Notes: generated from the letters alone by a model not told the origin. DNA of 64,000 nt from Deltaproteobacteria bacterium (GCA_034670305.1 JAXMNT010000003.1:192001-256000), one strand, 5' to 3'; shown: positions 41,891-57,552, counted from the stretch's first letter. Program-made: numbers and translations.

Positions 41891-43231
41891 ATGAACAGGC
41901 AATTCCTTAGAGCAGCTTCCGTCCTGAGCGCCATCCTGGCCCTCGGCGCCACCCAGTCGGTCGCCCACGCGGAGAGCGGCAAGCTCAACCTGCATCTGGA
42001 CGTTGGATTCGCGACCCCGTTCCTCGGCGAGCTCGGCCCGACCGAGACCACTGTGACGCTCGGCGGCGCGGGCTGGCTCTCGCTCGACTACCAGCTCAAG
42101 GCGCCCTTCTCGCTCGAGATCATTGGCGGCTTCGGCGGGTTCAACAACCCGCAGCCGCAGCACGCGATGGACCGCTCCTGGGCGGCCTACGGCACGGCCG
42201 CGGTGGGCGCGCGCTTCCGGTTCCTCGACAACCAAGAAGGCTACTTGAACGAGACCGAGGGAGACTTCCTGGGCAACGTCTGGATCAGCGCGCACCTTGG
42301 CTACCACTACTTCGACGACCACCAGTTCGGCATCGACGCCGCCATTGGGTACGAGTGGTCGCTGGTGCGTCCGATGCAGGTCGGCATCTTCTTGCGCGGG
42401 GCGGTGATGTTCGCGGGCGCGAACGAGGGCGCGGACGGAATCGTCGCGCTCGGCGTGAACTTCTCGTTCGAGCTCTTCGGCAACGTCGAAGGCGTCGACA
42501 CGGACGGCGACGGCCTGAGCGACGAACGCGAGGTCCAGCGCTTCGGCACCCAGCTGAACAACCCGGACACCGACGGCGACGGACTCAACGACGGCCTGGA
42601 AGTGCGCACGGGCACCGACCCGCTGTCGGCGGACACCGATGGAGACGGACTGAGCGACGGGGACGAAGACGCGAACGCGGACGGCAACGTCGCGGACGGC
42701 GAGAGCGATCCCCGCATGGAAGACACCGACGGTGGCGGCACGCCGGATGGGTTCGAAGTGCCCGATGGAACCGACCCGCGCGACGCGTCGGACGACGACA
42801 AGGACGGCGACGGAGTGCTCAACCACCTCGACCAATGCCGCGGCACCGCCGAAGGCACCGAAGTCGATGAGCGCGGGTGCGCGATCATCCGGGAGCGCAT
42901 GGTGCTGCCCGGCATCACCTTCGAGTTCGACAGCGCGGACATTCGACCCGAATCGGAGCGCACCTTGAGAATCGCCCTACAGATTCTCAGCGACAACCCG
43001 GACGCCCGCGTCGAAGTCGGCGGACACACGGACAACTCCGGCGCCCGCGGCCACAACCGGGATCTCTCGCGCCGGCGGGCGGATTCGGTCAAAGCGTGGC
43101 TCGTCGAGCACGGCGTGCAGGCGAGCCGCCTGCGGACCCGCGGCTACGGTCCCGACCAACCGGCGGCGTCGAACGACACCCCCGAAGGCCAAGCGCAGAA
43201 CCGCCGCATCGAGTTCACCCAGATCGACTAG
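41891..43231 (+). CDS. OmpA-family protein (beta-barrel, Ca-binding DTDGDG repeats, OmpA C-domain)
   Basis: Signal peptide; DTDGDGL repeats; FEFDSA, GHTD, LSRRRA, NRRIEF. Confidence 0.93.
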
Positions 43232-46485: not shown

Positions 46486-48210
46486 TCAGTCGGCGGGGCG
46501 CGGAACCGGCTGCATGGCGTCGAACCCAAAGGCCCGGATGTGGTTCACGTGCTGTCCCCGACAGGTGGTCTCGTAGCGGCAGTCCGAACAGCGCAGGCTC
46601 TTCACGAAGTAGTGCTCGTCGACGTAGCGGCGGATGTAGCGGAACGGCTCGAGGGTGCCGTCGGGCGTGGTCATCGCGGTGTCGTGGGTGGAGGGCTTCG
46701 GGCGTGGCTCCCGCCCGAGCACACAGGCAGGCACCCCTTCCACCGGCGTGTCCGCGAACGGGTGCTCGGTGAAGAACGCGACCAGATCGAGGTCGTTGCT
46801 GCGCGCTTCGGTGAGCCGCTCCCAGGTGGGCTGAAAGAGCGCCAGCCGCGCTGGCACCGTCTCGAGCCGGCGGAGCCAGTCCTCGTTGTCTCTCGAGAGC
46901 TGCAGACAGACCTCGAAGGTGCCGAACCCGAGTAGCGTCTCGGCGTCTTCGAAGCCGCGCACCCGGCAGGCGGTCAGCGTCTCGAGCGAACCCGCCTCGA
47001 GCGCCGCTTCGACCCCGCTCCAATCGTCGAGTTCGAGCACCAGCTCGGGAAGATCGAAGGGCTCGACGGCGGCGAGCGCAGCGGACAAATCGGGCGCGAC
47101 CACGTGAAGCACTCGGCTGCCGCGTGCGGCGACCCCCGTGGGCGGTGCGTACTGGAGCGCGACCATCGGCAGGCGCTTCTTGCGGCGCCCGTCACTCGCC
47201 GGGTCGCCACCGAACTGCGGCCCCATCGCGGCTTCGGCGCGCGTGTCGATGCGGATGACCTCCGGCGTGTCTTCGAGCATCGCGCGCTGGCTCTCTTCGA
47301 ACGTGTCGCAGACGTTCTTCAAGTAGCAGTAGCCGCAACGGCGCGGCTCGCGGCAGTCCAGCGGCTCGCCGGTCTTGACCCAGTGCTCGAACTCCTGGCG
47401 GCGTCCGCGCACTTCGTCGTGAAGCTTGTAGGGATCCTGGATGAGCTCGTGAAACCCCTCGCAGTGCGCGACGGGGAACCGGTTGAGCCAGATGTGCATG
47501 TTGGGCTTCTTGGCCCAGCGGAACGCAGCGACCAGGTGCTCGCGGTTCTTCTCGAGGTCGTAGAAGAGGACCTCCTTGCCGTCCTTCCACGCGTTGCCGA
47601 ATGGAATCACGTGGAGGAGATCGAACTCGCGCACGCCGAGGCCGACGAACTTCTCGATCATCGCGTCGAGGTGCTTCACGTTGCCGCGGTTCACGCACAC
47701 ATCGATGTTGATGATCGGGCGCCCGTCTTCGAGCGCGTTCATCAGGCCGGTCATCTCTTCGTCGAACGCGCCTTTCACGCCGACGAGCGCGTCGTGCACT
47801 TTCGCGTTCGGCCCGTGGATCGAGAACGTGATCTCTTGCAGACCCGCGTCGAGACACGCCTTCAGGAACTCCGGGTACTTGAACATGCGACCGTTGGTGA
47901 CGGTCTGGACCTTTTCGTAGCCGGCCAGCCGGCCGAGCTTGATGAAGTCCACGTAGCGCGGATGAATGGTGGGTTCGCCGCCCGACAGGATCAGGCGCTG
48001 GGCGCCCTTGCGCCGGCCATCGAGGATCTGCTGCTTGACCTCTTCGGGCTCGCGCATGCGTCCGTCGTGCGCGTCGGTGTCGAGGCAGAAGATGCAGTGA
48101 TCGTTGCAATCAAACGTGAGGCGGACCCAGTTCCGTTTCTGGTGGGCCGCCTCTTCATGCTGTTCGACGAAGCTTCCTCCGTCCGTCAGCGCACGCTGCT
48201 CTTCGAGCAC
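46486..48210 (-). CDS. Radical SAM protein, HxsC-like, with second degenerate Cys module
   Basis: CNDHCIFC, SGGEPT, TNG, FSIHG; Cys motifs CGYCYLKNVC and CSDCRYETTC. Confidence 0.9.
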   Translation of the reverse strand: MLEEQRALTDGGSFVEQHEEAAHQKRNWVRLTFDCNDHCIFCLDTDAHDGRMREPEEVKQQILDGRRKGAQRLILSGGEPTIHPRYVDFIKLGRLAGYEKVQTVTNGRMFKYPEFLKACLDAGLQEITFSIHGPNAKVHDALVGVKGAFDEEMTGLMNALEDGRPIINIDVCVNRGNVKHLDAMIEKFVGLGVREFDLLHVIPFGNAWKDGKEVLFYDLEKNREHLVAAFRWAKKPNMHIWLNRFPVAHCEGFHELIQDPYKLHDEVRGRRQEFEHWVKTGEPLDCREPRRCGYCYLKNVCDTFEESQRAMLEDTPEVIRIDTRAEAAMGPQFGGDPASDGRRKKRLPMVALQYAPPTGVAARGSRVLHVVAPDLSAALAAVEPFDLPELVLELDDWSGVEAALEAGSLETLTACRVRGFEDAETLLGFGTFEVCLQLSRDNEDWLRRLETVPARLALFQPTWERLTEARSNDLDLVAFFTEHPFADTPVEGVPACVLGREPRPKPSTHDTAMTTPDGTLEPFRYIRRYVDEHYFVKSLRCSDCRYETTCRGQHVNHIRAFGFDAMQPVPRPAD

Positions 48211-48287
48211 GGGCGCACTGTACTCGATCCCCGCCCAGACACCCGAGAGTTGTTGACGGCCGGTTCTGTGGATGGCCCGATCCCGCC

Positions 48288-49124
48288 ATGGGAATCGTCC
48301 CCAACCCGGATGGCCACCCGGCCCGTCCAGCGCTCTTCGCGCTCGCATTGTGCGTGTTCGGCGGCTTGGGGACGGCCCACGCCCACGCACAGCCCCAGAC
48401 CCCAGGCCGGTACACCCTCCGGCCCATCACGGTGGGAGAGGGCGCGGTTCGGTTCAACGGCCAGTTCTCCGTGACCCGATTCGAAACACTCCCCGGCGAG
48501 TACGACATCCGCGTGCACAGCGCGTTGGGGGTGGCCTACGGCATCGACGACGACTTCGAGGTCGGCGCGAGTTCTCAGCCGATCATGGCCTTCGGCGGTG
48601 GCGACCTGGTGGGGGTCGAGCTCTCGCCCGATCCAGACATCTCCAACACTTACCTCTATGGCCGGTATCGGTTTCTCCACCAAGAAGCGATCGAGATGGC
48701 GGGAGAGGTCGGGATCTCGGTTCCTTGGCGCGGGGTGTTCGGGTTCGTCCTGGGTCTGCCAATTCGGCTCCGGGGCGGCCAGTGGTTCGCCCTGGACACG
48801 GGCGCGGCATTCACAGTGCGGTTCGGGGATCCCACCACACCAGGCGCCATCTTTCCCTTCCGCCCGAGGGTGAGTGCCGGGAACTTCTACTTTGGCCTCG
48901 ACACCGGCGTGTACATGGACGAACTCCGAGTCGACCACATGATCATCCCGTTGGAAGCGGAGCTCGGCGTCGCGTTCCCAAACCGCACCATCGTCTGGGA
49001 CCTGTACGTTCATGGCGGATTGCCGCTGTTTCTCAGACCCAGCCGGCCCACGCCGATCGAGGAGCAAGTCTTCCTCATCTACTTCGGCTTTCGCCTCTAC
49101 GTAGACACGCGAAGCACGCGCTGA
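48288..49124 (+). CDS. Outer-membrane beta-barrel-like protein
   Basis: Signal peptide AHA; amphipathic strands; C-terminal YFGFRLY. Confidence 0.65.
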   Translation: MGIVPNPDGHPARPALFALALCVFGGLGTAHAHAQPQTPGRYTLRPITVGEGAVRFNGQFSVTRFETLPGEYDIRVHSALGVAYGIDDDFEVGASSQPIMAFGGGDLVGVELSPDPDISNTYLYGRYRFLHQEAIEMAGEVGISVPWRGVFGFVLGLPIRLRGGQWFALDTGAAFTVRFGDPTTPGAIFPFRPRVSAGNFYFGLDTGVYMDELRVDHMIIPLEAELGVAFPNRTIVWDLYVHGGLPLFLRPSRPTPIEEQVFLIYFGFRLYVDTRSTR

Positions 49125-49171
49125 CCAAGACGGGGCAGCGGCGAACCGCCTGGGGCGGTATGCTGCGCGCG

Positions 49172-51499
49172 ATGCCTACGACCCCGCCCCAACCGACGAC
49201 CCGCGTGCTCGTCGTTCATCCGCCGATGTCGGTGGCGCGGGACTTCATCGACTACCCGTACGTGAGCAACCTCGGCGCCGCGCAAGTCGCCGCGGCGTTG
49301 GCTTCGAAACCCACCCTCGATGTCCAGTACGTCGATTCGTTTGCCCTGCCGGGTTCCACCTTCGCCTGGTTCGACGACACGAGTCCTGCGTTGGCCGGGC
49401 GCGCCTTCGCCGGCGCCACCAACGACGAGGTGCTCGCTCGGTGCCGGCCCGCGGACGTCGCGGTCGTGGCGCTCACGCCCTTCCATCGGCCCGGCGTGGT
49501 CGACGCCAACCTGCGCGACCTGATCGAGGGTCTCCCAGCCGACCGCGTGATCCTCGTCGACGCCTACCAGTCCGGTCAGCACCACGTCGACGCCGATACG
49601 GTCCTCACCGACTACCCGGCGGCGCACGCCTGGCTCCGGTACGAAGCCGAGCGCGATCTCGAAGCGTTGATCGTCGGCGGAGAAGCCGGCGTGCACTTCG
49701 GCGGCCGCCCGGACATCGACGCCCTGCCCTTTCCGGCGTGGGATCAGATCGACCTCGAGGCCTACTGGCGCTTTCAGTCGCGCTTCGTGCATGGGCTCGG
49801 CCGTGGCAGCTGGGCGTTCCCCATCGGCCGCAGGACGTTGCCGATGGTCACCTCGCGTGGCTGTCCGTTCACCTGCACCCACTGCAGCAGCAACCCGGAC
49901 GTCGCCTCGGGCGGCGGACCAAAGATCCAGCGCCGCCTCTCGGAAGCGCGGCTGCGTGCGCACCTGCAGTACCTGGCGGGGCTCGGCGCCGACACCGTCT
50001 ATGTGCTCGACGAACTCATCAACGTTCGGCGCGATCACTTCGACGTGTTCCTCGATGAGATCGAGAAGCTCGACCTGAAGTTCGAGGTCCCGAACGGGTT
50101 CCGCGCGGACTACCTCGAGCCGCGTCACTTCGCGCGCATGCGCGGCCGCGTGACCACCGTCAGCGTGAGCGCCGAGAGCGGCAGCCAGCGGGTGCTCGAC
50201 GAGGTCGTGAAGAAGAAACTCGAGCTCTCGGCCATCACCCGCGCCGCCGCCAACGCCGAGAAGGCCGGGCTGCCGCTCCTCATCCACTACATGATCGGGC
50301 TGCCCGGCGAGACCGCGGCCGAGGTCAACGAGACCTTGGCGTTCGCGCTTCATCTCTGGGACGAACACCGCGCGTGGCCGGCCGTGCAGTTCGCGACGCC
50401 CCTGCCGGGCACCGAGATCGCGCGGCAGCTGACCGCGAGCGCCGGTTCGCTTCCAGTCGTCGACGACTGGGGCCCGCGCTTTCAGGGCGGCCCATCGGCG
50501 AGCCCGGACACCGTGGACGCGGCCACCCTCGAGCAGTTCATGGCGACCTTCCGGCACCGGCTGCGCGAGAGCCAGGGCCCGAAGAAGCTGATCATGAACG
50601 TGACGTACGTGTGCAACAACCACTGCACGTTCTGTGCGGTCGGCACCCGCACCCAGGTCGATGGACACCCGACGCGGCAACGCGAGATCCTCGACACCTA
50701 CCGCAAACACGGCATCACCCTGGTCGACTTCGACGGGGGGGAACCCACCCTCAACCCGGAGCTCATCCCGCTGATCCGCTACGCGCGCCGGATCGGATTC
50801 GAGCGCATCAACGTGACCACGAACGGCCGACTGTGCGCGTACGAGGACTTCGCGAAGAAACTCGTCGAGAGCGGCCTGACGACCTTGCTCTTCAGCGTGC
50901 ACGGTCCGGACCTTCGGTCGCACGCCCGCGAGGTCGGAGTGGCGGAAGCGTTCGGCCAGACCATGAGCGGGATCGATCACTGCGTCGCGCACAGGCCGGA
51001 CAACGTCGAGCTCGGCATGAACGTCACGCTGACCAAGACCAACTACATGCGGCTCGAGGACCTGGCGCAGCTGGCGTTCGACCGCGGGCTGCCATGGCTC
51101 AACATCCAGTTCCTCACGCCGTTCGGTCGCGCAACGACCGAGGTCGCGCCGGACACCGAACATGCGGCGGAGATCACCCGCGGCGTCATCGACCGCTGGA
51201 AAGACCGCATCAAGATCCAGGTCATCAACCTCCCCTGGTGTTTCATGCCCGGCTACGAGTCCTACCTCGCCGGCGACGCGGCCAAACTCGCGCGGCACAT
51301 GGTCTTCGTGAACAACGAGCGGGTGAACCTCGCCGAGTACCTGGCGGCGCGCCGCGTGCGGAAACCCGTGTGCGAGACCTGTCCGCACGCGTGTTTCTGC
51401 GGAGGCTTCTACGAGCTCGAGGACGTGCCGGAGCCGGAGTGGCTCGTGTCGGCCGAGTCGCTTCTCAAACGCACCGATCCCGACGTACGTCTCCGCTGA
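49172..51499 (+). CDS. B12-binding-type radical SAM fused to a second HxsC-like radical SAM
   Basis: SRGCPFTCTHC, AESGSQRVL, MIGLPGET, TPLPGT; then CNNHCTFC, GGEPT, TNG, LPWC, CETCPHACFC. Confidence 0.92.
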   Translation: MPTTPPQPTTRVLVVHPPMSVARDFIDYPYVSNLGAAQVAAALASKPTLDVQYVDSFALPGSTFAWFDDTSPALAGRAFAGATNDEVLARCRPADVAVVALTPFHRPGVVDANLRDLIEGLPADRVILVDAYQSGQHHVDADTVLTDYPAAHAWLRYEAERDLEALIVGGEAGVHFGGRPDIDALPFPAWDQIDLEAYWRFQSRFVHGLGRGSWAFPIGRRTLPMVTSRGCPFTCTHCSSNPDVASGGGPKIQRRLSEARLRAHLQYLAGLGADTVYVLDELINVRRDHFDVFLDEIEKLDLKFEVPNGFRADYLEPRHFARMRGRVTTVSVSAESGSQRVLDEVVKKKLELSAITRAAANAEKAGLPLLIHYMIGLPGETAAEVNETLAFALHLWDEHRAWPAVQFATPLPGTEIARQLTASAGSLPVVDDWGPRFQGGPSASPDTVDAATLEQFMATFRHRLRESQGPKKLIMNVTYVCNNHCTFCAVGTRTQVDGHPTRQREILDTYRKHGITLVDFDGGEPTLNPELIPLIRYARRIGFERINVTTNGRLCAYEDFAKKLVESGLTTLLFSVHGPDLRSHAREVGVAEAFGQTMSGIDHCVAHRPDNVELGMNVTLTKTNYMRLEDLAQLAFDRGLPWLNIQFLTPFGRATTEVAPDTEHAAEITRGVIDRWKDRIKIQVINLPWCFMPGYESYLAGDAAKLARHMVFVNNERVNLAEYLAARRVRKPVCETCPHACFCGGFYELEDVPEPEWLVSAESLLKRTDPDVRLR

Positions 51500-51508
51500 G
51501 ATGCTGAG

Positions 51509-52471
51509 ATGACCGCGTCGACACGGCCCGGAGCCGACGCCTCCGACCTCGCGTTGCTCGACGTCGTGCTCGACTACGACTGCAACCTCGGGTGCCGCTA
51601 CTGCACGTTGACCGCCGAGATGCGTCGGCGCGGGCTCCGGACCGACACGGTGCGGCGGGCGATGCGGGCCGCCCGGCGCGATGGGTTTCAGGCCATCTCC
51701 TTCACCGGGGGCGAGCCCACCATCCGCCCCGATCTGCTGCCCCTGATCCGCGAAGCGCGCGCGCTCGGATACACATCGATCAAAGTGCAGACGAACGGAC
51801 TGGTGTTCGCGGAACGGAAGAACCTCGAGCGGCTGCTCGCCGCGGGCACCACCGAGATCCACCTCTCGATCCACACCCACCTCGCCGAGGCCTACGACGA
51901 TCTGGTCCGGCGCGAGGGTGCCTACGAGCGGATGAAGCAGGCCGCGGCCAACCTCGCGGGCGTGTCGGATCGGGCGACGGTGTTCTCGGATCTGGTCGTG
52001 CTCCGCAGCACGCTGCCAGTGCTCGCCGACGCGGTGGACTGGTGCGCGGACCTCGGCTTCACCGCCGGACACCTCTGGTACTACTCGGCGACCGACGAAC
52101 AGGCCGGGCGGACCGACCAGATGCCGAGCTTCGAAGAGGCGATGCCGTCGATCCTCGCAGCGCTGGAACGGGCGGAGGACCGCGGCTTCGATCTTCGGTC
52201 GCTGCACATCCCCCATTGCCTGCTGGGTCGCTTCGCCGACCAGGGCACGGACCCCACCGCGCGCACGGTTCGGGTCGCCACACCGGACGCGGTGTTCGAC
52301 CTCGCCGACAGTCCGCTCACCCCCAACGCGCGCATCCCCGCGTGCGTCGACTGTCCCCGCGCGACACGCTGCCGCGGCGTGCGGCGCGACTACCTCGCAC
52401 AGTACGGCGACGCGGAGATGGCCCACGCGCGCGGCCAAGCGCGTACCCTCTTGCCGGTGGTGCCCGGCTGA
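51509..52471 (+). CDS. Radical SAM protein, HxsC-like
   Basis: CNLGCRYC, TGGEPT, QTNG, IPHC, CVDCPRATRC. Confidence 0.9.
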   Translation: MTASTRPGADASDLALLDVVLDYDCNLGCRYCTLTAEMRRRGLRTDTVRRAMRAARRDGFQAISFTGGEPTIRPDLLPLIREARALGYTSIKVQTNGLVFAERKNLERLLAAGTTEIHLSIHTHLAEAYDDLVRREGAYERMKQAAANLAGVSDRATVFSDLVVLRSTLPVLADAVDWCADLGFTAGHLWYYSATDEQAGRTDQMPSFEEAMPSILAALERAEDRGFDLRSLHIPHCLLGRFADQGTDPTARTVRVATPDAVFDLADSPLTPNARIPACVDCPRATRCRGVRRDYLAQYGDAEMAHARGQARTLLPVVPG

Positions 52472-52519
52472 GCCGCCTCGTCCGCCACCAGGACCCCAAC
52501 CCCAGAGGAGATCTGATCC

Positions 52520-52696
52520 ATGCCCAAGTGTCAGGGATGCGGCGAAGACGTCGAGGAGCTCGAAGCCCGCAAAGTGGCCGGCAAACGCAAGAAGCTGTGT
52601 GAAGACTGCGTGGAGCTGGCCGAAGAACAGGCGGAGATCGCCGAGATGAGCGAAAACGCGATGCGGGACATGATGGAGTACAAGGGCAAGTACTGA
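52520..52696 (+). CDS. 58-aa Zn-ribbon-like protein
   Basis: AGAGGAG RBS; MPKCQGC...LCEDC...MMEYKGKY; too short for the ORF track. Confidence 0.75.
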   Translation: MPKCQGCGEDVEELEARKVAGKRKKLCEDCVELAEEQAEIAEMSENAMRDMMEYKGKY

Positions 52697-52750
52697 CGCG
52701 GGCGCATCTCCGCGTCCCCTCTTGGGGGGTGTGTCCGGGTAGGTTATCCT

Positions 52751-54343
52751 GTGCGCGTGAGCGACCCATTCCTCAGCACGCGGTCGCCCCTCGGTCCAGC
52801 CTGGACCCTCTGCGCGGTGATGCTGGCCGTGCTGGTGCCCACCACTGGATGCGCCAAGGGATCCGGGACCGGGTTCGACGTGAGCGTCGACCTCCGGACC
52901 GATCTGGTGCCGGGCGTCGAGTTCACCGCGGTGCAGGTCCGGCTGGAAGGCGAGACCACCACCCTCGAACCGGCGCACCCCGAACGCGACTACCTCGAAG
53001 GGGTCCGCGTCGCCGAGTTCGAGGGCGTCTCCGGCGGCGCGATCGAGCTGATCGTCGACGTCTCGAACGGATCCGGCGTGGTGGTGTCGCGGCGCGTCGC
53101 GGTGACCGTGCAGAACGACACCGCCGTGACCGTCGTCATCACCCGGGACTGCCGGGGCGTCGAGTGCCCGGGCGACGGCAGCACGAGCAACACCGCGTGC
53201 CTGGGCGGCGAGTGTGTGGATCCCTCGTGCACGCCCGAGACGCCCGAGTTGTGCCCGACCGCGGATTGCACCGTCGCCGCCGACTGCGACGCGCCGATGC
53301 AGGCGTGTTTGGAAGCGAACTGCATCGTCGGCCGATGTCTCTACGCGGACCGCGGCAGCTGCGGCGACGGCCGGTACTGCGACGAGCGCTCCGGCTGCGT
53401 GGACGTCGGCGTCGACGCCGGACCGATCGACGGCGGCGGCATGGATGCTGGAACCGACGCGGGTCCGTGCGGTTCGATCATGTGCGAGGGGTTCTCCATC
53501 TGCGATCCCTTCATCGGCGGGTGCGTGAGTCTGCGCGGCTGCATCGGGCCCGACGAGTGCGACAGCGGCGACATCTGCCGGAACTCGTACTGCGTGCCGG
53601 AGGACTACGACGTCGATGGCGACGGAGTGCCCGCCTCCGAAGACTGCGACGAACGAGACGCCGCCATTTCGCCCGACGCGACCGAGGTGTGCAACCTCGT
53701 CGACGACGACTGCGACATGATGGCGGACGAAGGCAACATCGGCGATCTGTGCGCGAGCGCGCCGGGCGGCGGCGAGTGCATGGACGGTGTGTGCGGCTGT
53801 CCTCCAGACCGGTTCGACGTCGATGGCGTGTCGAGCACCGGTTGCGAGTGCATGGCGTCGCCCGTCTCGACCGCCGGTCTGACGTGCGCGGAAGCGATCG
53901 ACCTCGGCTCGGTCTCCGACGTCGGCGAAATGACCATGGCGATGGCGAACGTCTTACCGGCCGACCGCGAAGTGTGGTTCCGCATCCTCGCGACCGACGC
54001 CGCGGACACCGCCTGCGACAACTTCCACGCCCGCATCCAGTTCCTCGAGAACCCGGACGACCGCTTCGAGTTCACGGTCTTCCGCGGCGGGTGCGGCGCC
54101 GCGACCTGTGCGGACATGGGCTACACGGACTTCAGCTGGGCCACCGACTTCCGCGCGACCATCGACGCGACTGAGACGGGGCAGTGTCCGTGCCTGTCGA
54201 CCGCACGCGCACCCGACGGGGTGGCGACGTGTTCGGACGACTCGTCGGTGCTGCTGGTGCGGGTGCGCCGCCGGGCGGCGGGTCCGATGCCAAGCTGCGA
54301 CGGTTTCGTCCTGGAGCTGAGCAACGGGGTCTACGACACCTGA
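52751..54343 (+). CDS. Cys-rich lipoprotein with putative metal-binding motif
   Basis: Lipobox TTGC; DCDE.DAAISP.ATEVCNLVDDDCD. Confidence 0.8.
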   Translation: MRVSDPFLSTRSPLGPAWTLCAVMLAVLVPTTGCAKGSGTGFDVSVDLRTDLVPGVEFTAVQVRLEGETTTLEPAHPERDYLEGVRVAEFEGVSGGAIELIVDVSNGSGVVVSRRVAVTVQNDTAVTVVITRDCRGVECPGDGSTSNTACLGGECVDPSCTPETPELCPTADCTVAADCDAPMQACLEANCIVGRCLYADRGSCGDGRYCDERSGCVDVGVDAGPIDGGGMDAGTDAGPCGSIMCEGFSICDPFIGGCVSLRGCIGPDECDSGDICRNSYCVPEDYDVDGDGVPASEDCDERDAAISPDATEVCNLVDDDCDMMADEGNIGDLCASAPGGGECMDGVCGCPPDRFDVDGVSSTGCECMASPVSTAGLTCAEAIDLGSVSDVGEMTMAMANVLPADREVWFRILATDAADTACDNFHARIQFLENPDDRFEFTVFRGGCGAATCADMGYTDFSWATDFRATIDATETGQCPCLSTARAPDGVATCSDDSSVLLVRVRRRAAGPMPSCDGFVLELSNGVYDT

Positions 54344-54357
54344 CCTTGGTGCGCGCC

Positions 54358-54963
54358 ATGATCGTCACTCTGCATGCCAGCCGAGCCGCGCCCCACAACT
54401 GGGTCGCCGGAGCGGACACCTTCGACGCCGCCTGGGCCGAGATCCACGCAGCGAAGCGGTGCACCGCGTCCGTGCGGGGTTCGGCGGACGTTGCCCCGGC
54501 GACACGCGTCCTCACCCTGGTCGAACGTTCGAACATGCGGGAGTTGCTCGCCCTCGCCGAACAGCTTCCGGCCGGCGCCGAGTGGTGCCTGCAGCTTCGG
54601 AGGGACGGCACCCGCAGCCCGCGGCTCGCGATGGCCGCGCCTCGGATCTTGCGGGCGGCCACCGCGGCTCAGAAGCGCGGTCTGCGGGTCGCCGTGCGCG
54701 CCGTGCCGCTCTGCCTGCTCGGGCCCTACACCGACCTGGCGCTGCCGGCGGTCCCCGTCGAAGCCGGGGGTCCCTGTGCCGAATGCCGCGCGCGTCTGCA
54801 GTGTGCCGCGCCCCATCCCGCGTATCTGACCCGGTTCGGGCCGTCCGAAGTCAGGGCCCGCGGGCCGGTCGAACTCGACGTCGCGCAACTCGAGCGCTTC
54901 GCTTGGGTGTTCGAGGACATGAACCCAGGGCCGGACAGTGCTATCTTGGGTCGCGATGGGTGA
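54358..54963 (+). CDS. Degenerate HxsC-like protein lacking the CxxxCxxC motif
   Basis: Only C-terminal features: TLHA..APH, RSN..EL, VPLC, CAECRARLQC, YLTRFG..E. Confidence 0.7.
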   Translation: MIVTLHASRAAPHNWVAGADTFDAAWAEIHAAKRCTASVRGSADVAPATRVLTLVERSNMRELLALAEQLPAGAEWCLQLRRDGTRSPRLAMAAPRILRAATAAQKRGLRVAVRAVPLCLLGPYTDLALPAVPVEAGGPCAECRARLQCAAPHPAYLTRFGPSEVRARGPVELDVAQLERFAWVFEDMNPGPDSAILGRDG

Positions 54964-55240
54964 CCACGACGATTGGGGCGACGACTTCGAAGAGGAGCTG
55001 CCTGCGTTCGCCAAGGACGCAGAAGGCGCACTCAACGGAGAACAACGCGATGTCTCGCGGCGCGCACTCGAGACCGCGGACGACGCGGTCGCCGGCGCGG
55101 ACCAGCACGGCGCACAGCACTGCAGCCACGGCAGCCACGGCTCCCATGGCTCTCACGGCAGCCATGGTTCTCACGGAAGTCATGGAAGCCACGGCTCGCA
55201 CGGAAGCCACGGCAGCCACGGCAGCCACGGTTCCTGGTAG
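54956..55240 (+). CDS. His-Xaa-Ser repeat precursor peptide (HxsA-like), 94 aa
   Basis: Acidic leader, then HCS+(HGS)x12-W with varied synonymous codons. Confidence 0.9.
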   Translation: MGDHDDWGDDFEEELPAFAKDAEGALNGEQRDVSRRALETADDAVAGADQHGAQHCSHGSHGSHGSHGSHGSHGSHGSHGSHGSHGSHGSHGSW

Positions 55241-55243
55241 CGC

Positions 55244-56317
55244 TTGGACCCCCGCGTACGATTGCCGTTGCTCGATGGCCCAGAGCTCGATGCTGGGGTG
55301 CTGGACGTCGTCGGCCGGATCTCCGAGAAGCGCGAACGGGTCCACATCCTCACCGGCGCGGTCTGCAACAACAACTGCATCTTCTGCATGGAAGAGGATC
55401 GGGACGGACGAAAGGTCCTGAACTCGCAGACGGACGACGCGATGGTCGCCCGCATCCTGAAAGAGAACACCGAGGCTGGGTCGATCTGCGAAGAGATCTG
55501 TTTCACCTCCGGCGAACCGACCACGAACCGGCGGCTCATCGCCTGGGTGAAGATGGCCAAAGCGGCGGGCGTCGAGCGCATCAGCGTGATGACCAACGGC
55601 CGGGCGCTGTCGTACGACAAGTTCACGCGCGGACTCGTCGCCGCGGGCATGAACCGCTTCTACGTGAGCATTCACGGCCACACCCAGAAACTTCACGAGT
55701 CCCTCGTGCGCACGCCGGGCGCCTTCGATCAAACGGTCGCGGGCATTCGCGAGGTGGCCAAGCTGCGACGCTACGGGGTCGAGTTGCACACCAGCACCGT
55801 GCTGACGAAGCGCAACCTTCCGCACCTGCAGGACATCTACGACTTTCTCCGTGGGCTCGGCGTGGGTCAGGTGGTCTTCAACGTGATGCAGGCCAACGGC
55901 CGCGCGGACACCCACTTCGAGCGCATCTTCCCGCGGTACTCGGACATCGCCGCGCAGGCGGCCGAGTTCGTGACGGCTGCCCAGGCCGCGTCCGGCGACG
56001 CCGAGGTGCCCGCGTTCTTCATCGACATCCCACTGTGCACCACCACCGAGCTGCCGGACTTCAACCGCGGCTACGTCGAGTCCTACAAACACTACGAACC
56101 CGACGACGGCGGCGACGGCGGCCACGACCAGCGGCTCTCGGTCCTCGACCGAGTGCAGGGCGATCTGGTCGAAGTGCGCCGGAGCGATCTGGACGACGAC
56201 CTCAGAGAGAAGCGCGACGCGTGCAGCCGCTGCAAGTACGACAAGGCCTGTGAAGGCGTCTGGGTGAACTACCTGCGCCGCTTCGGCTGGGACGAGATGG
56301 TCCCGGTCATCGACTGA
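55244..56317 (+). CDS. Radical SAM protein, HxsC-like
   Basis: CNNNCIFC, TSGEPT, TNG, VSIHG, IPLC, CSRCKYDKAC, YLRRFGWDE; starts 3 nt after the precursor stop. Confidence 0.92.
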   Translation: MDPRVRLPLLDGPELDAGVLDVVGRISEKRERVHILTGAVCNNNCIFCMEEDRDGRKVLNSQTDDAMVARILKENTEAGSICEEICFTSGEPTTNRRLIAWVKMAKAAGVERISVMTNGRALSYDKFTRGLVAAGMNRFYVSIHGHTQKLHESLVRTPGAFDQTVAGIREVAKLRRYGVELHTSTVLTKRNLPHLQDIYDFLRGLGVGQVVFNVMQANGRADTHFERIFPRYSDIAAQAAEFVTAAQAASGDAEVPAFFIDIPLCTTTELPDFNRGYVESYKHYEPDDGGDGGHDQRLSVLDRVQGDLVEVRRSDLDDDLREKRDACSRCKYDKACEGVWVNYLRRFGWDEMVPVID

Positions 56318-56442: not shown

Positions 56443-57552
56443 ATGGCGCGGATCATCGAGATGCTCTGGGACTGTTCGTCCTGCGGCACCCGCAACCGCG
56501 GGCGGGACATGCGTTGCACGATGTGCGGCTCTCCGAAGGAGGACGACGAGCGCTACGTGATGCCGGGCGACACGTCGGCGGCCCCGAGCGTGACGGACCC
56601 GAAACGACTCGCCGAAGCGCGGGCCGGACGCAACTGGCAATGCCCGTACTGCGACGGTTCGGTCCGCAACCTCCACGGCGAGTGTTCCGTGTGCGGCGGA
56701 CCGAGGACCGACCGCGCGGCGGCCGGGGAGCCGACCATCGACCTGAAGGGTGCCGCGGGCCGGCGCGCGGACAACCCGGACTTCGACAGCGAGGGCAAGG
56801 TCGTTTACCCGAGCGAACTCGACCAAGCGATCCGCCGGTTTCGGAGGGGGCGTTGGTTCGGCGTGAGCATCGTGCTGAGCATCCTGGCGGTTGTGGGCCT
56901 GTTCCTGCTCTGGTGGTTCCTGCCCCACGAGGTCGAGGTCGAGGTCGCGAGCATCGGCTGGGAACGCACGGTCGAACTCCAGCGGCGCCAGACCAACTCG
57001 GGGAGCGACTGGCGCGACCAGATGGCGGGCGGCGCATTCAACGTGTCGTGCTCGACTCGGCAGCGCGGTACCGAGAACTGCCACCCCTACACCTGCAACT
57101 GCCATCAGGTGACCGACTACTGCTCCGAGTCCTGCAACTGCCATGAGGTGTGCACGGACAACGGCAATGGCTACGCGAGCTGCAGCACCGAGTGTTCGAG
57201 CTGTCAGCACGAGTGCGGCAGCCACGAAGAGTGCGACACCTGCTACGAACAGTGCCCTGTGTACGCGGACTGGTGTTCCTACCAGTACTACACCTGGCCC
57301 ACGCTCGACCGCGAGACGACGCGGGGCAACGACCACGCGCCCTACTACAGCGACCGCCTCTTGGCCGACCCGGCCGTGAACGAGCGGCTCGTGTACGCGC
57401 AGCAGTTCGACGTGCAGTTCGAGGAGGACGACGACGTGTGGAACCACCGCCCCGATACCCTCGAGGAGTTCCTGCGTTACGACCTACACGAGACATGGCT
57501 CATCGAGGTGAACCACGCGGGCCAGGTCTGGCCACAGCACGCGGTGGAGTGA
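56443..57552 (+). CDS. Membrane-anchored Zn-ribbon / Cys-rich protein
   Basis: WDCSSC..CTMC and WQCPYC..CSVC ribbons; one TM helix; Cys-rich extracytoplasmic segment. Confidence 0.75.
   Translation: MARIIEMLWDCSSCGTRNRGRDMRCTMCGSPKEDDERYVMPGDTSAAPSVTDPKRLAEARAGRNWQCPYCDGSVRNLHGECSVCGGPRTDRAAAGEPTIDLKGAAGRRADNPDFDSEGKVVYPSELDQAIRRFRRGRWFGVSIVLSILAVVGLFLLWWFLPHEVEVEVASIGWERTVELQRRQTNSGSDWRDQMAGGAFNVSCSTRQRGTENCHPYTCNCHQVTDYCSESCNCHEVCTDNGNGYASCSTECSSCQHECGSHEECDTCYEQCPVYADWCSYQYYTWPTLDRETTRGNDHAPYYSDRLLADPAVNERLVYAQQFDVQFEEDDDVWNHRPDTLEEFLRYDLHETWLIEVNHAGQVWPQHAVE

Follow-up and report, generated by a model that had tools for sequence, protein, structure and literature searches.

A His-Gly-Ser repeat peptide with an expanded set of radical SAM enzymes, best explained as one arm of a dispersed Hxs-type system of Myxococcota

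Introduction

Within a stretch of 64 000 nucleotides from a deltaproteobacterium (GCA_034670305.1, JAXMNT010000003.1:192001–256000), which we refer to as the window, positions 46486–56317 encode a short peptide with a (HGS)12 repeat beside five radical S-adenosylmethionine (radical SAM, rSAM) domains and a protein that corresponds only to the C-terminal part of such an enzyme. The best explanation for this region is that it represents one rearranged arm of a dispersed Hxs-type peptide-maturation system which is widespread in Myxococcota. The peptide and the adjacent rSAM belong to the catalogued families HxsA4 and HxsC4, the other rSAM types occur almost exclusively in genomes that have the core enzyme HxsB, and HxsB and HxsD are encoded on another contig of the same genome. 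A preliminary description of the sequence had recognized an expanded His-Gly-Ser system, and the layout found here agrees with it.

The canonical system HxsD-HxsB-HxsC-HxsA is an anti-phage system that blocks the entry of phage DNA (PMC13128918; Li et al., Nat Commun 2026), so that the earlier remark that no product had been characterized is outdated. According to the sections of that paper on which we draw, HxsA of Escherichia coli is processed and exported, and it carries a +8 Da modification (C1H-4 type) on its SHRSS motif which needs HxsB, HxsC and HxsD. The HxS repeats of this protein are essential, and mature HxsA binds DNA. Canonical systems are found to 99.7% in Pseudomonadota and have the gene order D-B-C-A in 99.6% of cases; the same sections mention neither Myxococcota nor subtypes.

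The precursor peptide and HxsC4

The precursor gene (54956–55240, plus strand) encodes 94 residues that match the HxsA4 model NF038313 with 91.8 bits (cut-off 55; E 3.7e-26) over profile positions 1–93 of 93. An acidic leader of 54 residues (16 Asp and Glu, 4 Lys and Arg) is followed by QHCS, (HGS)12, a Trp and the stop codon, which gives 13 consecutive HxS units; 15 of the 94 residues are His. The repeat tract in the DNA (55118–55230, plus strand) has a period of 9 bp and 12.6 copies with 71% matches, which means that the codons differ synonymously while the peptide repeat stays constant. The gene for HxsC4, an rSAM of 357 residues (55244–56317, plus strand), starts 3 bp after the precursor gene. 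It reaches 567.9 bits with NF038332 (cut-off 500) and has the motif CNNNCIFC at residue 41 and the tail CSRCKYDKAC at residue 327. As both proteins pass the cut-offs of their families, the term ‘distinct variant’ used in the preliminary description was too strong.

At E ≤ 0.01, the NCBIfam models matched by the precursor were NF038313 and three models for collagen-like adhesins; a TIGR03979-type HxsA was not among them. A hydrophobic signal segment is absent from the precursor, and Pfam detected no domain for peptidoglycan binding in it, the sole match being a sub-threshold collagen repeat.

Relatives were collected by searching species-representative genomes for HxsC4 with tblastn. This gave 225 confirmed relatives, of which the best 80 (59–74% identity) were used for neighbourhood analysis. 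These 80 all bear myxobacterial or older deltaproteobacterial names and include cultured Nannocystis species. A run of at least four HxS units was present in 67 of the 80 loci, mostly ending just 5′ of HxsC4, and none was found in 13; in five loci the run is on the opposite strand, 5–7 kb away. The leader pattern LPxF...QR(E/D)(I/V)S.RA...AD is kept in 66 precursors, and the relatives share the constant end (Q/T/G)H(C/A)S(HGS)nW-stop with n of about 4 to 20. The family scores, the synonymous codon variation and the HxS runs in 67 of 80 related loci indicate that the peptide–rSAM arrangement is beyond chance.

Tandem HGS precursors were seen 5′ of HxsC4 in a few loci, two each in L017 and L018 and three runs in L021. 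They differ in repeat number, with for example 13 and 18 HxS units.

The additional radical SAM proteins

Genes were called from third-position G+C content by frame (GC3), as the stretch has about 67% G+C and therefore many spurious open reading frames (ORFs). The five CX3CX2C motifs reported earlier were all found in GC3-supported frames. They are distributed over four genes, because CPFTCTHC and CNNHCTFC share one stop-free ORF of 779 residues. All genes from 49160 to 56317 are on the plus strand with successive gaps of 9, 279, 5, −8 and 3 bp, so that they are packed in the manner of an operon, and rSAM1 is divergent to this block. Neither a protease nor an exporter was seen in the window, as had been stated before.

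rSAM1 (46486–48390, minus strand) is an HxsC-like protein with CNDHCIFC at residue 95 and a long C-terminal extension containing two CX2CX5C tails (residues 352 and 601). Alignments with its orthologues start near residue 58, which places the true start probably near 48240. The fused two-domain rSAM (49160–51499, plus strand) is described below. It is followed after 9 bp by rSAM4 (51509–52471, plus strand), an HxsC4-like protein of 320 residues with CNLGCRYC at residue 25 and the tail CVDCPRATRC at residue 279.

All four genes score above the Pfam cut-off of PF04055 (29.5 bits): rSAM1 with 72.0, the fused protein with 117.9 in two stretches, rSAM4 with 75.8 and HxsC4 with 69.2 bits. The preliminary description had proposed several HxsC-like paralogues, and there are indeed three further HxsC-like domains. 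The best NCBIfam match of each is HxsC4, with 71–103 bits against a cut-off of 500, so that they are not members of this family. With the model for canonical HxsC (TIGR03977), the scores are 97.5 bits for HxsC4, 86.5 for rSAM1, 68.2 for the C-terminal domain of the fused protein and 51.1 for rSAM4.

A shared tail of the form PxC...CxxCxxxxxC had been described for all genes. The CX2CX5C part is present in all five (rSAM1, fused, rSAM4, ‘half’ and HxsC4), with P-x-C located 20–75 residues N-terminal of it; the exception is the first tail of rSAM1, which has AHC instead.

Co-occurrence across Myxococcota

The same sample of 301 Myxococcota genomes was searched for every feature, and overlaps were taken manually from the tables. 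HxsB (E ≤ 1e-80) was found in 112 genomes, in 110 of them above the cut-off, and a DNA pattern for four consecutive HGS units in 111, the reversed control giving 0 in all but a few genomes. Both features are present in 104 genomes. HxsB occurs alone in eight and the pattern alone in seven, two of the latter being HGW/HGR runs. The positive genomes span more than 20 families.

The fused protein (E ≤ 1e-40) was detected in 74 genomes. All of these contain HxsB and 73 have the HGS pattern, and none of the 189 HxsB-negative genomes encodes the fused protein. The rSAM1 type (E ≤ 1e-50) was found in 105 genomes, 103 of which have HxsB. The rSAM4 type (E ≤ 1e-55) is restricted to 18 genomes, all with HxsB and the fused gene, and in 10 of them rSAM4 is located directly 3′ of the fused gene. 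HxsC4 is above its cut-off in 18 genomes (41 at E ≤ 1e-60), and these 18 also have the fused protein. The association with HxsB (74 of 74, 103 of 105 and 18 of 18) indicates that the extra rSAMs travel with the His-Gly-Ser system. The preliminary description had named as an argument against itself that the rSAM homologues might occur mostly without HxS peptides; in the 301 sampled genomes the reverse was found.

Two families illustrate the distribution. All 23 genomes of family f18 are positive for HxsB, the HGS pattern, the fused protein and rSAM1, and 13 of the 14 genomes of family f26 carry the system (HxsB and HGS pattern). In all five f18 genomes tested, the precursor gene is an orphan located on a separate contig; the leader is basic, and the peptide keeps the HCS(HGS)nW end.

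The orphan precursor of f18 is often located at contig ends, which suggests that the HGS repeat breaks assemblies.

Remaining components in the source genome

The source genome (7.9 Mb in 105 contigs, 96% complete) encodes the core proteins that are missing from the window. The earlier statement that HxsB and HxsD are not recognizable is true of the window and does not extend to the genome: contig C55 encodes HxsB (519.2 bits with TIGR03978, cut-off 370), HxsD (51.4–52.8 bits with TIGR03976, cut-off 50) and an HxsD-like protein (64.1 bits with NF038315, cut-off 41). They have neither HxsA nor HxsC as neighbours. An orthologue of an rSAM with a C-terminal methyltransferase domain (rSAM-MT), found near HxsC4 in other genomes (see below), is present on contig C38 (50% identity, full length), and contigs C51 and C33 encode more HxsC4-like paralogues.

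A second HGS precursor is located on contig C2 (genome G000, at about 263.1 kb; locus L095, 8090–8389, plus strand). It contains 16 repeats, ends in HGSW and scores 71.9 bits with NF038313. The gene is preceded by an HxsD-like gene with 48.8–49.1 bits, just under the HxsD cut-off of 50, and followed by a gene for a protein of 1256 residues with C-terminal TPR repeats. The N-terminal 350 residues of that protein resemble phytanoyl-CoA dioxygenase in an ESM Atlas feature search (0.97); Pfam detected only the TPR repeats in the whole protein, and these 350 residues gave no match in a PDB sequence search. The window is thus best read as a rearranged arm of a system all parts of which are present in this genome but dispersed.

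Neighbourhoods of HxsC4

Neighbouring protein families were defined by de novo clustering over the 80 related loci. Two of them are bona fide family members, HxsB with 559 bits (cut-off 370) and HxsD with 64 bits (cut-off 50). Further clusters correspond to rSAM-MT, to an HxsC-like rSAM of 315 residues (cl3), to a protein resembling DUF483 and to a hydroxylase of the aKG-HExxH type. Frequencies refer to the 44 loci in which each flank extends over at least 8 kb (full-flank loci): HxsB and HxsD are each present in 23, rSAM-MT in 18, rSAM4 in 17, the N-terminal domain of the fused protein and cl3 each in 11, rSAM1 in 8 and the Cys-rich protein lipoCys in 5. At least one orthologue of the extra rSAMs of the window occurs in 22 of the 44 loci, and all of them in four.

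The closest relatives (L009–L011) have rSAM-MT, HxsD, HxsB, HxsA4, HxsC4, ‘half’, lipoCys and rSAM4 in one cluster. The cluster of L011 contains the fused gene as well, and L015–L021 add rSAM1 divergent to the fused gene. Orthologues of rSAM1 (50–77% identity) adjoin the fused gene in related loci. The neighbourhood is thus kept across related loci, although gene order and strand vary.

An aKG-HExxH-type domain is located near HxsC4 in eight of the 80 related loci. The example in L082 (1607–3217, minus strand) scores 77.5 bits with the model for aKG-HExxH-type peptide beta-hydroxylases (TIGR04267, cut-off 40), which hints at hydroxylation as an optional added step.

In loci from other Myxococcota families, namely L120–L124 (f18), L110, L118 and L119, we found blocks of rSAM1-like, cl3, HxsD and HxsB genes, or up to about seven HxsC-like domains, with no HxS gene adjacent to them.

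The fused two-rSAM protein

The fused protein has 779 residues and the motifs CPFTCTHC at 235, CNNHCTFC at 485 and CETCPHACFC (tail) at 738. Its C-terminal part of about 300 residues is HxsC4-like. The N-terminal part of about 470 residues is of class-B type and gives NCBIfam matches to Sden_1168, PhpK, AprD4, HpnJ and BzaD, all far under the cut-offs. An AF2 model of residues 1–473, built with 22 orthologues, has a pLDDT of 88.3 and consists of a Rossmann-like domain and an rSAM barrel. A Foldseek search with this model gave AprD4 (E 1e-18), followed by the cobalamin enzymes MgmA, CysS, TsrM, TokK and OxsB (E values of 1e-18 to 1e-12 overall), with alignments spanning about 450–530 columns.

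The proposal of a cobalamin-type rSAM is borne out by these results as far as the architecture is concerned: at the level of family matches and predicted structure, the class-B architecture of the N-terminal domain is confirmed. Like MgmA, CysS, TsrM, TokK, OxsB and AprD4, the modelled domain combines a Rossmann-like domain with an rSAM barrel. It differs from the class-B families in scoring far below every family cut-off and in the absence of a Pfam B12-binding domain. No characterized enzyme is known to us that joins a class-B module to a further rSAM domain of HxsC-like type, although no search was aimed at one.

The ‘half’ protein and lipoCys

The ‘half’ protein (54349–54963, plus strand; 204 residues) is homologous to about the last two-thirds of an rSAM4-type enzyme. 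As described earlier for a gene with only the C-terminal half, it has no CX3CX2C motif, and BLASTP aligns it with the C-terminal third of rSAM4 (E 9e-6). No NCBIfam or Pfam family matches it, and it is not a catalytic-rSAM member of PF04055. An alignment of 19 sequences revealed four invariant Cys residues (C122, C143, C146 and C152), and H16, R60, W79 and R92 are likewise invariant. Counterparts without CX3CX2C were found in 18 related loci.

The AF2 model of ‘half’ has a pLDDT of 83.7. Foldseek found nothing in the PDB at E ≤ 0.001. In an exhaustive VIA-align comparison, C-terminal halves of rSAM enzymes took all of the first seven ranks, with middling Z values of 7.0–8.0. A profile search retrieved short proteins of 166–233 residues without a Pfam domain together with full-length rSAM4-type enzymes. 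In our reading, ‘half’ is a paralogue that is truncated but conserved; we do not regard it as a broken gene.

The gene for lipoCys (52751–54343, plus strand) lies directly upstream of ‘half’. It encodes a protein with 41 Cys residues, probably secreted or a lipoprotein, which contains one ‘putative metal-binding motif’ of MopE type; that it may be a lipoprotein was judged only by eye, from a hydrophobic stretch followed by TTGC. Orthologues (42–51% identity) are located directly 5′ of ‘half’ in L009, L010, L011, L013, L015, L016, L017 and L021, and the two genes form a conserved same-strand pair.

Proposed function and alternative explanations

HxsC4 very probably acts on the HGS peptide. That the extra rSAMs of the window do so as well is, in our view, a reasonable expectation held with less assurance. 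In the cytoplasm, an HxsB/HxsD-type module would bind the leader of the precursor, and the HxsC-like paralogues would then act successively on both side chains, His and Ser, of every HxS unit, by analogy with the C1H-4 (+8 Da) modification on SHRSS of E. coli HxsA (as given in the sections of PMC13128918 used here). The class-B-type domain would most likely supply a one-carbon (methyl-derived) step, and ‘half’ would most likely be a non-catalytic Fe–S partner. These steps would yield a rigid poly-imidazole peptide that is heavily modified. As to its role, we consider housekeeping in the envelope or in connection with metals somewhat more likely than phage defence, given that the system is near-universal within positive families and that a signal peptide and a peptidoglycan-binding domain are both missing from the precursor. 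A more far-reaching version, which we regard as unlikely, is that the HGS system is an inherited housekeeping pathway, and neither a defence island nor a classical secreted RiPP. At least seven rSAM domains, among them a class-B-type one-carbon module fused to a cross-linker of HxsC-like type, would rebuild every HGS unit into a repeating poly-imidazole heterocyclic polymer, with the four-Cys protein as a dedicated Fe–S scaffold; the polymer would be a novel sort of peptide-derived cofactor or envelope material.

Several observations weigh against a common system acting on the HGS peptide. In ten of the 44 full-flank loci, cultured Nannocystis included, the surrounding 10 kb contain HxsA4 and HxsC4 and no other part of the system. 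A second HxsC4-like group (about 40% identity) is found in rSAM-rich clusters that have no HxS repeat nearby in any of 10 loci; regular-expression searches and ORF reading found none 5′ of this group, nor 3′ of the f18 HxsB genes. None of the seven stretches analysed around the fused gene in f18 (10 kb on either side; 23 f18 genomes in total) encodes an HGS peptide, and where both are on one contig the fused gene is 9–25 kb away from HxsD-HxsB. It is 2.9 Mb from HxsC4 in G225 and on other contigs than HxsC4 in G270 and G295. The canonical HxsC cut-off (TIGR03977, 267.9 bits) is reached by no domain in the region, the best score being the 97.5 bits of HxsC4. With respect to the class-B-type domain, Pfam detected no B12-binding domain in residues 1–220 of the fused protein even at E ≤ 5, and AprD4, its top structural match, works without cobalamin. 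Finally, the counts over the 301 genomes (such as 74 of 74 for the fused protein) ignore kinship and, related genomes being non-independent, overstate the support.

It is doubtful that the HGS peptide is modified by HxsC4 alone, with HxsB and HxsD in trans. In that case the fused protein, rSAM4, rSAM1 and ‘half’ would serve another substrate, for example the 41-Cys protein or a non-peptide, and would merely share a neighbourhood or regulation with the Hxs genes. Cross-linking of a Cys-rich subunit ahead of its export is known from rSAMs of QhpD type, and lipoCys followed by ‘half’ is a conserved gene pair. The seven f18 stretches that have the fused gene but no HGS peptide and the second HxsC4-like group without a nearby repeat (10 of 10 loci) point in the same direction, as does a giant protein with MopE repeats that is encoded with an OmpA protein near the fused gene in f18-type genomes. 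These f18 neighbours, however, share with the proteins of the window nothing beyond the generic OmpA and MopE motifs. Two proteins encoded near the fused gene in f18, of 1150 and 290 residues, match no Pfam family and are without a homologue in the window, and the f18 surroundings yielded no conserved neighbour that was informative. LipoCys is present in 5 of the 44 full-flank loci versus 11 for the fused protein and 17 for rSAM4. The strict or nearly strict association of the extra rSAMs with HxsB described above also argues against a separate substrate, and so does the HGS precursor encoded elsewhere in all five f18 genomes tested.

Another proposal, in line with the metallophore suggested in the preliminary description, concerns the product. 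Judged from composition, the mature peptide might bind metal and serve Ni, Zn or Cu as a chaperone, a store or a metallophore; we rate this as rather unlikely. The 13 consecutive HxS units with 15 His in 94 residues would suit such a function, and a protein with a MopE-type metal-binding motif is a recurrent neighbour. However, MopE-motif proteins are common in these genomes, and neither a transporter nor a TonB-dependent receptor nor a leader protease recurs in the neighbourhood clusters. The SulP permease encoded downstream is not conserved, with no homologue in the 80 related loci.

Least probable is an anti-phage defence analogous to canonical HXS, with a matured His-rich product that would block phage DNA entry: E. 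coli HxsD-B-C-A, the closest characterized relative, has this activity and the core families HxsB and HxsD are common to both, but HxsA4 lacks the signal segment and peptidoglycan-binding domain of the exported, peptidoglycan-anchored E. coli effector (PMC13128918, sections as above), PADLOC (ten proteins; a 2023 library that predates the description of HXS) gave only weak, generic viperin-like rSAM matches, the cluster is flanked by genes for OmpA, SulP and TPR/PEGA proteins and by no defence genes, and with 23 of 23 f18 and 13 of 14 f26 genomes positive the system looks inherited and not island-like.

Relation to known systems

The kind of system (Hxs with rSAM enzymes) and the A4/C4 pair are already known, the pair being catalogued in NCBIfam yet undescribed in print. 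The region passes the cut-offs of both models and has the precursor gene directly followed by the rSAM gene. Beyond this pair, to which the models are confined, the window adds the fused protein, rSAM1 and rSAM4, with their low HxsC4 scores, and ‘half’, which belongs to no family.

As in canonical HXS, there is a substrate with HxS repeats, at least two rSAM maturases and HxsD, the source genome having bona fide HxsB and HxsD. The canonical system consists of four genes in a fixed order, whereas here at least 10 components are distributed over at least four contigs, with HxsB outside the window on C55. The substrates differ too. Canonical HxsA, as described in the sections of the paper cited above, is an exported, peptidoglycan-binding protein of 214 residues with five spaced repeats, in contrast to the 94 residues and 13 contiguous HxS units of HxsA4.

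A literature search with HxsA4, HxsC4, HGSHGSHGS and His-Gly-Ser or HGS repeat found no mention. One for radical SAM and histidine-rich RiPPs (peptides made by ribosomes and modified thereafter) of myxobacteria gave nothing on the system, as judged from the listings. No printed description was found of the architecture with several rSAMs, the fused class-B::HxsC-like enzyme, the four-Cys truncated paralogue, the dispersed organization, or the spread across the phylum.

The name of NF038332, ‘rSAM_rare_HxsC4’, understates the distribution, as the system occurs in about a third of the sampled Myxococcota and HxsC4 has 225 relatives. A function for the four-gene HXS system, with its +8 Da chemistry on one HxS motif, has been available only since 2026. 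In the myxobacterial version the substrate is simpler (a short peptide with 5–21 identical HGS units), the set of enzymes is larger and partly separable, and there are carriers in cultured genera such as Nannocystis, which makes the chemistry directly testable. If every additional rSAM contributes a step, a heavily rebuilt poly-His peptide of an undescribed type would result, and the fused class-B::HxsC-like enzyme would be an uncharacterized two-rSAM architecture.

Flanking genes

On the 5′ side, the cluster is preceded by genes for an OmpA-family protein with TSP3 repeats (41891–43231, plus strand) and a Cys-rich protein with a MopE motif according to Pfam (43922 to about 46400, minus strand). 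A promoter and terminator scan of 46–58 kb gave sites no more numerous than in shuffled sequence. Among sequencing runs, four DNA sets contain the window, of which they may be the source, and no RNA set was listed.

Directly 3′ of HxsC4, a gene at 56443–57552 (plus strand) encodes a protein of 369 residues with an N-terminal zinc ribbon of RanBP type, one hydrophobic segment and a Cys-rich C-terminal half. It is conserved in none of the 80 related loci. An ORF of 278 predicted residues with a signal-peptide-like start (48288–49124, plus strand) is located between the divergent rSAM1 and fused genes. Since neither protein, nor the SulP permease, has a counterpart in the 80 related loci, we excluded all three from the system. 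The 278-residue ORF matched no family, and a search of 5.8 billion proteins gave just two homologues (46% and 29% identity). In relatives, the rSAM1 and fused genes abut without such an ORF. It is likely to be a lineage-specific insertion.

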